Assembly (NCBI GenBank): GCA_051294375.1
Contig: CM119266.1
Span: 1,183,554 to 1,247,553 of the forward strand
DNA: 64,000 bases
Direction: 5' to 3'
Origin: Paraspadella gotoi
Taxonomy: Eukaryota > Animalia > Chaetognatha
Below are positions 4,501 to 5,796 of this stretch, piece by piece (position 1 is the first letter of the stretch; the number at the start of each line of letters is the position of its first letter). The notes below the pieces were generated by a model that ran no database searches, was not told the DNA's origin, and saw only the letters and a list, made by a program, of their open reading frames with translations. The position numbers were made by a program, and so were the translations under genes.

Positions 4501-5796
4501 CGTCTTCCTCATTTCCGGCTCTCAATTCTGGCGCTTCAATTCCGTCGAGACCGGAAACGTGGAGCAGCAGTGGCCGGGTCTGCCGGAAATCGGCGCCGCA
4601 ACTCGTTACAACAGATTCCTATACTTTTTCGACCGCTCGGGGCGCTACTATCGTTGGAACGAGAAGGAGCAAGGGGTGGCGGATATTCAGCCGAGCTATC
4701 CACGCAACGTGGCCTGGTGGGCAAAGTGTTTTAATCAATTATCTTATGAATTAACTGATTTGACAACTGTGAAAAAATATAACAAGTATGGTGGACTAAA
4801 ATCCACCAACCGTTCATCAGCGGCCATTGGTGCCGGAGGCAAGTCATTCGCCTCCCAACCCAAAGGTCTGGGGTTCTAGCCCGGTGGTCGTCTGGCAGTT
4901 AAGAGGGACGGGGCGCTTAACACGCCTGTAACATGGTGTTACAGCCTGATCCGAAGCTCAGGGACTGCTTACATTGAACGGTTCTGTCACTAACACATAA
5001 CAAATATCACTGTCTCTTCAAAAGTTACCGTAGTAGAGGCGCGGCGAGGGGTCTAAAGTCAAGCCGAGATAATGACATCCCGGTTTAATTACTTCTACCG
5101 CTAATGATACAAACAAAAAAACGTTTAAAGTTCTTACCAGTCATTAATCTTATTTTATTTTGTCACTTTTACTTTGATCAGGTGGTGGTTTCGTTGCGGA
5201 GACTCCGAGATTGGCGCGCAGGTCGCGCCCGACTCAGATGCGAAAACAAATGTCTAATCGATTTCCTTGATTTTTTTTGATCAATTTTGTTATGTAATTT
5301 TTCTTTTGAATTGATTTTTCATTTATTAGTTTTTTGATTAACAAAACTATGTTACTTTTTAAAATTTTGCTCAGAATAAAAATTAAATTATTGATTTGTA
5401 CTAATTTCATATCCCCAAAAATAGTTACAGTTATAGAATCAAATTTTACGCCAATTCGAACAGCAATGCTGACAATAATCACTGAAATTATTATTTTTTG
5501 TTTCTGATTTATTGGCTTCGAGTTATTATTATTCAAATCTCAATTCATCAATAAAATCCGTAAACATTGTTATTATTTTCGTCGACTATAAGTTTTATTC
5601 GTTTATCTGCCTCCCCTCTCAAGTAAGCGCCGAGCCGGAAAACAACGCCGCAATTAGTGCCGCCGACCCAAAAGACGCCGCCAACGACGCCGCTTCGCTC
5701 GGTAGTGCCGTCGTTAACGGGGATCTCGTCTTCGTCGTGTTTGGCGCCGGCGTTGTCTTCAAATTCTGTAATAGAGAGATAGGGATGTTATATTAA
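1571..5796 (+). CDS. Matrix metalloproteinase (M10A), multi-exon, with furin site, Thr-rich hinge, hemopexin domain and possibly a membrane/GPI tail
   Basis: Exon translations give YLEKFGY, cysteine switch PRCGFPD (~2050), [43 protein letters not shown], zinc motif [12 protein letters not shown] (~3067-3102), Met-turn AVMWAF, poly-Thr hinge and hemopexin repeats ([32 protein letters not shown]). The start codon and the last exon (5624-5796) are uncertain. Confidence 0.93.
4320..4419 (+). mobile_element. 5'-truncated copy of the same SINE
   Basis: Matches the 3' half of 4919-5019 (cctgatccgaagctcagggact...cataacaataattactgtctctt) and lacks the tRNA head. Confidence 0.8.
4820..5019 (+). mobile_element. 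tRNA-derived SINE, full-length copy 1, in an MMP intron; contains a twister-like ribozyme
   Basis: tRNA-like head with acceptor-like GCGGCCA/TGGTCGT, A-box-like TGGTGCCGGAGG and B-box-like GGTTCTAGCCC. Near-identical to 35728-35922. Confidence 0.8.
4895..4968 (+). ncRNA. Candidate type-P5 twister ribozyme
   Basis: P5 gcagtt/gactgc; GA-CGGG; UAA; GC; P3 ctgtaaca/tgttacag; P4 cctga/tcagg with loop UCCGAAGC; UCCG pairs with CGGG (pseudoknot T1). Confidence 0.65.

Follow-up and report, generated by a model that had tools for sequence, protein, structure and literature searches.

Self-cleaving ribozymes in animal retroelements

Self-cleaving ribozymes have been described in several kinds of animal retroelement, and the account given here draws on the available parts of the papers cited. 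In schistosomes, Sm-alpha is a tRNA-Gln-related SINE that carries a hammerhead ribozyme, and Sj-alpha also has a hammerhead (PMC2770079; PMC6765202). The twisters reported in animal retroelements are of type P1 and sit at the 5′ end of RTE elements (PMC8501958; PMC7761336). When 2625 natural twisters were tested, P1 and P2 proved tolerant of defects, whereas the pseudoknots and the catalytic bases were sensitive; all the molecules tested were of type P1, where T1 is not joined to the cut site by a loop (PMC11662667). P1 itself is dispensable and can be deleted (PMC5408937). For SINEs, the origin and function of the body are regarded as an open question (PMC5786205).

Here we analyse a repeat in a 64-kb stretch of animal DNA with intron-rich genes (the window). 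For one exon, the top named relatives belong largely to marine invertebrates (about 60-68% identity), and proteins from bacteria reach similar scores. A preliminary description had proposed that the repeat joins a tRNA-like head to a twister-like ribozyme, and suggested that this architecture was without precedent among tRNA-SINEs. That claim has to be narrowed: a ribozyme-bearing tRNA-SINE is known in Sm-alpha, where the ribozyme is a hammerhead, and what stands is that no tRNA-SINE with a twister was found in the literature searched, which covered few subscription papers and took in some sources in part. The analysis supports reading the repeat as SINE-like, with a head that resembles a tRNA and a core that derives from a twister and follows the type-P5 order.

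A dispersed repeat family and its insertion marks

The repeat unit is about 200 nt long and is present as three dispersed copies in the 64-kb window, all on the + strand (Table 1). Copies 1 and 2, the two originally listed, align at 89.5% identity over 200 nt (E 1e-73), so the ~200-bp repeat is confirmed at both places; the family is larger, since copy 3 (83% identity, E 2e-25) had been overlooked. Copy 3 is without the tRNA-like head and without the 5′ strand of the ribozyme. All three copies share their 3′ end, and one of the three is truncated 5′. Copy 2 is bracketed by a target-site duplication (35720-35726 and 35925-35931; 7 nt exact, 9/10 over 10 nt); a clear duplication was sought at copies 1 and 3 and none was found. 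Nor does the window hold a partner LINE that shares the tail of the repeat.

Table 1. Features of the repeat copies, of the predicted twister-like core of copy 1 and of the adjoining host exon (window coordinates).
Feature	Position	Strand	Remark
Copy 1, full length	4820-5019	+	
Copy 1, tRNA-like head	4820-4892	+	ARAGORN pseudo-tRNA-Gly at lowered threshold; promoter role presumed
Copy 1, P5 5′ strand	4895-4900	+	pairs with 4963-4968, 6/6 in both full copies
Copy 1, P2 3′ strand (4904-4906), predicted general-base G4907, A4908, T1 strand (4909-4911)	4904-4911	+	
Copy 1, 6-nt self-complementary linker replacing the P1 hairpin	4912-4917	+	self-duplex 4911-4918, -9.7 kcal/mol
Copy 1, predicted cleavage site U4918|A4919, A4920, P2 5′ strand (4921-4923), T2 strand (4924-4925)	4918-4925	+	
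Copy 1, P3 hairpin (8 bp, 3-nt loop)	4926-4944	+	loop different in each of the 3 copies
Copy 1, P4 (5 bp) and 8-nt loop L4 with T1 partner (4951-4953) and T2 partner (4956-4957)	4945-4962	+	
Copy 1, P5 3′ strand	4963-4968	+	6/6 pairs with 4895-4900
Copy 1, 3′ part with tail	4969-5019	+	
Copy 2, full length	35727/8-35922	+	predicted cut U35826|A35827
Copy 3, headless	4320-4418	+	begins at the predicted cut or a few bases from it
Last hemopexin exon of matrix metalloproteinase gene	4444-4879	+	

Further copies were sought elsewhere by exact pattern. There were none in viral contigs and none in either of two scans of GTDB genomes, and a metagenome scan gave seven matches, 0/7 of them similar to the repeat outside the pattern. 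A blastn search of phages and plasmids with the repeat returned nothing better than E 2.

Some further resemblances lie next to the copies. A separate repeat pair of about 200 bp (35515-35717 and 45873-46086) has one member directly upstream of copy 2, and no empty site could be obtained from it. Where copy 2 begins, a 10-mer (35724-35733) has one further occurrence in the window, at 4787-4796, some 30 nt ahead of copy 1, and bases 4808-4816 are the reverse complement of copy 1 tail bases 4975-4983. Either the 5′ end of copy 1 is longer or rearranged, or these two matches are coincidences in host coding sequence.

The tRNA-like head

The head is closed by an 11-bp stem (4820-4830/4881-4891 in copy 1), in which four one-sided changes leave pairing intact and one breaks it. 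Its likeness to a tRNA, as claimed earlier, finds modest support at lowered stringency: at normal thresholds neither ARAGORN nor Rfam calls the head of either full copy, and at a lowered threshold ARAGORN places a cloverleaf exactly over the head, at 84-85% of the cut-off in copy 1 and 80% in copy 2. Shuffled heads reach the same levels in 9/1000 (copy 1) and 25/1000 (copy 2) cases; run over the whole window, ARAGORN makes 9 calls with the threshold at 85% and, with it at 80%, 35 calls, 4 real tRNAs being among them. The anticodon does not fall at the same position in the two heads, and the A and B boxes are degenerate relative to the box consensus. When the heads were compared with the four tRNAs of the window, only tRNA-Lys clearly beat shuffled sequences (0/500 and 1/500 as good); in the remaining six comparisons, 13-268 of 500 shuffles did as well. 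A scan for tRNAs similar to the head gave none. On this modest support the head is likely tRNA-derived, and by analogy with tRNA-derived SINEs it would be transcribed by Pol III. The head of copy 2 contains a run of four T at 35782, where Pol III would stop, so copy 2 should be silent.

Layout of the twister-like core

The core has the strand order of a type-P5 twister, as first proposed: the UAA site, G-A, T1, T2, P3 and P4 are in place with a 6-bp P5 closing them, the ends of the motif lie in P5, as type P5 requires, and every motif named in the preliminary description is present where it was placed. Both full copies form all pairs of P5 (6/6), P3 (8/8), P4 (5/5) and T2 (2/2); this T2, between 4924-4925 and 4956-4957, is the pairing of the loop GC with the GC before P3 that had been suggested. 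T1 consists of three Watson-Crick pairs and one G-U in both full copies. The U-A site is followed by a second A (4918-4920 in copy 1, 35826-35828 in copy 2), and a G in the position of the general base stands with an A directly before the T1 strand (G4907 and A4908; G35815 in copy 2). P4 and L4 are unchanged in sequence across 3/3 copies. Two-sided compensatory changes were sought among the three copies and there are none, which leaves complementarity as the ground for T1.

P1 and P2 depart from the consensus. P1 was rightly described as near-absent: a 6-nt linker takes its place, and it can form at most one G-U pair, the G of which is also used by the fourth T1 pair. P2, which had been called weak and bulged, is indeed mismatched (in a 3-bp register, 1/3 pairs form in copy 1 and 2/3 in copy 2), but its 3-nt strand need not be a bulge, as a 3-bp P2 occurs naturally in phage twisters.

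Comparison with phage twisters and with chance

How often such a layout arises by chance was gauged with a relaxed twister descriptor that does not require P1, P3 or P5 and asks for one P2 pair; it was written after the sequence had been seen. On both strands of the window it matches copies 1 and 2 alone, and 1500 dinucleotide-shuffled windows gave 3 matches. An upstream strand together with a 6-bp P5 appears in 0.03-0.05% of shuffles of the repeat's own linker. These figures bear on the reading in which there is no twister at all and the SINE body is a four-way junction of hairpins that fits the consensus by accident. The minimum-energy fold of copy 2 is in fact such a junction, Rfam is negative (see below) and the descriptor was composed post hoc; against this stand the scarcity of matches in shuffled windows and the fact that P3 and P5, for which the descriptor did not ask, are found exactly at their consensus places. 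We judge this reading very improbable, and a chance origin of the twister match is nearly excluded.

For natural counterparts, IMG/VR was scanned with four motif patterns, which gave at least 121, at least 120, at least 124 and at least 120 stretches; the counts depend on the patterns chosen and include related phages. At least 46 distinct descriptor matches lie in these stretches. Among the matches listed, P2 is fully paired in 39/46, and 33 have a P1 of at least 4 bp and can be called well-formed phage twisters; within this listed set of 33, 21 have a 3-bp P2 and 3 have the same T1 variant as the repeat (UCCG with CGGG). This variant, put forward earlier as a compensatory form of T1, is natural on the evidence of these phage sequences, and so is a P2 strand of 3 nt; both features are also seen in phage twisters that Rfam recognises. 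A linker of 8 nt or less is rare, at 2/46 descriptor matches listed, one of them a mis-parse. Twisters are clustered on several phage contigs, which hold 2-5 within a few kb, and P2 in most of these clustered twisters is 3 bp, versus 4 bp in the Rfam consensus.

The preliminary description had named a covariance-model match as a test able to refute it, and here its expectation failed: Rfam gave no twister match for the repeat at E up to 10, and no match to hammerhead, HDV-like, pistol, hatchet or twister-sister models. The Rfam twister-P5 model (RF02684) leans on a long P1 hairpin and is without P3. As a control, 20 hand-picked phage loci were searched in the same manner: 19/20 match Twister-P5 at E up to 1, and 16/20 score above gathering. 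In the one locus missed (L345:61-102), a phage sequence with twister motifs, P2 and P4 are complete and P1 is replaced by a linker of 6 nt; it is possibly a natural parallel to a core with a 6-nt linker, or possibly a chance match. A covariance model built from 9 phage twisters on a crude alignment put copy 2 at the top of its 16 matches and copy 1 next, with E values (0.1 and 0.49) that are not significant and with the matches mostly out of register. We class the repeat as twister-derived and not as a member of the Rfam Twister-P5 family, on account of its absent P1 hairpin and of an Rfam score below detection.

Host gene and other features of the window

Two of the three copies lie in one host gene, which encodes a matrix metalloproteinase: copy 3 is inside a 214-nt intron (4230-4443), and copy 1 is at the 3′ end of the gene. 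Without splicing, the reading frame of the last hemopexin exon would extend into the head of copy 1 for 19 codons and end with a stop codon at 4877-4879; the predicted cut lies 39 nt further on. The first candidate poly(A) signals past copy 1 are at 5375 and 5382, so that an active ribozyme there would sever the metalloproteinase mRNA from them. Copy 1, at this 3′ end, has the weaker P2 of the two full copies.

Elsewhere in the window, an LTR retrotransposon-like element (28350-34385) has two repeats of about 190 bp that are 93.8% identical and an integrase zinc-binding domain (31754-32374). It lies 38 nt past a tRNA gene (28238-28311), with tRNA-Lys about 370 nt away, and may target Pol III genes. 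The window also contains an 8.3-kb duplication at 96% identity (36602-44765 and 49461-57702), a 720-bp repeat pair in opposite orientation at 94% (7983-8699 and 61005-61726) and a 470-bp imperfect palindrome (62765-63234).

Predicted self-cleavage and competing readings

Folding calculations point to competitors of the twister. With pseudoknots left out of the score, the nested fold compatible with a twister is 7.9 and 7.7 kcal/mol less favourable than the minimum. For the T1 strand of copy 2, the predicted partner is the P2 strand (p 0.98-0.99), and the proximal P2 pair has a probability of 0.00 in both copies versus a median of 0.85 in the 33 well-formed phage twisters among the matches listed, of which 3 also fall below 0.05. 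As a whole, the linear element folds no better than its shuffles (z -0.85 and -0.88).

Other observations are consistent with function. First, the parts that were sensitive in the type-P1 tests (pseudoknots and catalytic bases) are intact in the core, which as a type-P5 molecule has a short linker tying T1 to the predicted cut site. Second, copies 1 and 2 differ at 2/74 sites in the core and at 16/122 in head and tail (Fisher p = 0.019). Third, the alignment of copy 3 to copy 1 starts at A4919, directly after the predicted cut, by way of a 6-nt match and a 3-nt gap; the 6-nt match would occur by chance in the flank of copy 3 with a probability of about 2e-4. Aligned to copy 2, copy 3 begins only 9 nt past the predicted cut. 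The start of this single headless copy fits a cut at 4918|4919 and suggests cleavage in vivo. At the same time, the presence of two full-length copies rules out efficient cutting of the RNA that serves as template for new copies.

We give about even chances to a model in which the repeat is a SINE with a leaky type-P5 twister, its RNA predicted to cut itself at U4918|A4919 in part of the transcripts. A master copy would be transcribed by Pol III from the head into an RNA of about 200 nt, and in a minority of these RNAs the twister would fold and cut; the loop-less P1, the mismatched P2 and the competing folds would all slow the ribozyme. Uncut RNA would be reverse-transcribed from its tail by a LINE-type enzyme and give full-length copies such as 1 and 2. 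The 3′ piece of a cut RNA would retain the tail and might be copied too, giving a headless, promoter-less and catalytically dead insertion such as copy 3. As a type-P5 cut removes the promoter and the catalytic G together, the element should be under selection for a damped ribozyme: an efficient one would end the lineage, and a damped one fits the occurrence of both full-length and headless copies.

The model of partial cutting differs from the reading that the twister is a dead fossil solely in whether some cutting remains. In the latter, a twister was captured once and inactivated by loss of the P1 loop and by P2 mismatches, and the core is now a mere structured body; inactivation would explain the spread of head-bearing copies, and copy 3 would be a relic older than the inactivation, or else truncated 5′ in the ordinary way. 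Several facts agree with this: 2/3 copies are full length, folding favours non-twister pairings, Rfam is negative, and copy 1 is sense-oriented just past the stop of the host gene, where cutting would harm the mRNA. So does what the available part of PMC5786205 says of SINEs: Kojima (2018) argues there that 5′ truncation results when an active ribozyme follows the head, and notes that RTE-derived bodies are often not the 5′ end of the RTE. Against a fossil stand the intact catalytic bases and pseudoknots, a core more conserved than head and tail, and a third copy that begins at about the predicted cut; P1 and P2 flaws of the kind held to have killed it are, moreover, mostly tolerated (PMC11662667, available in part). 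We regard this reading as rather unlikely.

The catalytic strand could also come from the other side. A strand in the tail (4974-4981 in copy 1, 35882-35889 in copy 2) might complete a type-P1 twister with the same cut site, in which case the element would be a tRNA head fused to the remnant of a twister-headed RTE, and copy 3 a member of the headless parent family. The tail strand of copy 1 can form T1 and 2/3 P2 pairs, a fit reached in 0.08-0.2% of shuffles by criteria chosen post hoc. Published parallels exist, as far as the available texts go: Perere-3 RTEs are headed by twisters and their inserted copies begin at the cut (PMC8501958), and a tRNA head followed by 5′ and 3′ parts of an RTE is a common SINE plan (PMC5786205). 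The tail strand has an A in place of the catalytic G; a G-to-A change of the general base does keep partial activity (mean fraction cleaved 0.54 versus 0.76; PMC11662667, available in part), but P2 falls to 1/3 pairs in copies 2 and 3, the window holds no RTE, and the reading leaves unexplained why a true G stands in an upstream strand that also forms a perfect P5. A type-P1 origin thus seems improbable.

Equally doubtful is a cycle like that of Sm-alpha or the retrozymes, with tandem master copies, efficient cutting and ligation of the unit between two cuts into a circle, the dispersed copies being by-products. The circular unit would run from the 3′ half through tail and head to the 5′ half, with tail and head forming the loop of P5. 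Type-P5 order would suit such a cycle, in that the whole ribozyme would re-form across the junction, and, in the available parts of these reports, Sm-alpha does this with a hammerhead (PMC6765202) and monomers of animal retrozymes are circularised by RtcB (PMC7229834). In the window, however, 0/3 copies are in tandem and none ends at the predicted cut site, the target-site duplication of copy 2 brackets a head-to-tail monomer, and circular folding is no better than in shuffles (z -0.6 and -0.5).

More speculatively, and with a probability that we set lower still, an active type-P5 twister in a Pol III SINE may brake its own spread, with P1 forming only between two transcripts and the catalytic-like strand of the tail competing for the cut site. 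The linker would then build a double twister in the manner of dimeric hammerheads, and RNA that had become abundant would behead itself.

Comparison with known systems

The comparisons that follow rest on the available parts of the papers cited. Like Sm-alpha, the repeat has a head that is likely tRNA-related, with a presumed Pol III promoter, and then a ribozyme (here predicted to be self-cleaving), whose cut would part the promoter from the downstream piece. Unlike the repeat, with its twister-like core and three solitary copies, Sm-alpha has a hammerhead, is often in tandem and releases monomers on cutting. Animal non-LTR retrozymes and minimal hammerheads are likewise short non-coding retroelements with a ribozyme, and in minimal hammerheads the formation of dimers rescues a weak helix beside the cut, which is of interest given the self-complementary linker found here; retrozymes differ in having hammerheads, a tandem arrangement and circular RNA, and no promoter is reported for them in these texts (PMC7229834; PMC7761336).

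Among the twisters of animal retroelements, the T-variant twisters of the Schistosoma mansoni RTE Perere-3 (PMC8501958) resemble the repeat in belonging to a non-LTR retroelement, in tolerating a weak P1 and in having inserted copies that begin at the cut. The Perere-3 twister is of type P1, lies at the extreme 5′ end and has no tRNA head in the account available, and its catalytic strand is kept by each new copy, whereas in the repeat the strand that fits best as the catalytic one precedes the predicted cut and would be lost along with the head. If the RNA of the repeat does cut, animal twisters would have a second role besides trimming the 5′ ends of RTEs. The plan of head, structured body and short tail is also that of SINEs with a tRNA head and a bipartite RTE or Vingi body (Bov-tA and others; PMC5786205); no RTE sequence was found in the window as a source of the repeat. 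In the available part of that scheme twisters are not mentioned and ribozymes behind a head are expected to be selected against. If the RNA of the repeat cuts, a defined chemistry could be assigned to the middle body of a SINE, at a place where loss of the ribozyme is expected. If the RNA does not cut, the repeat would still be a SINE body of nameable source.

Among ribozyme families, the comparison is with the type-P5 twister. The repeat is unlike RF02684 in being without a P1 hairpin, in its mismatched P2, in having P3 and P5 together, in scoring below Rfam detection and in being an animal repeat; if its RNA cuts, it would be a natural type-P5 twister that lacks the P1 hairpin and is missed by Rfam, and such motifs would probably be under-counted in animal repeats. 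What it shares with RF02684 is the strand order, the UAA site, G-A, T1, T2 and a P4 with an 8-nt loop (PMC5408937), and with the phage members of type P5, among the matches listed, it has in common the T1 variant and the 3-bp P2.
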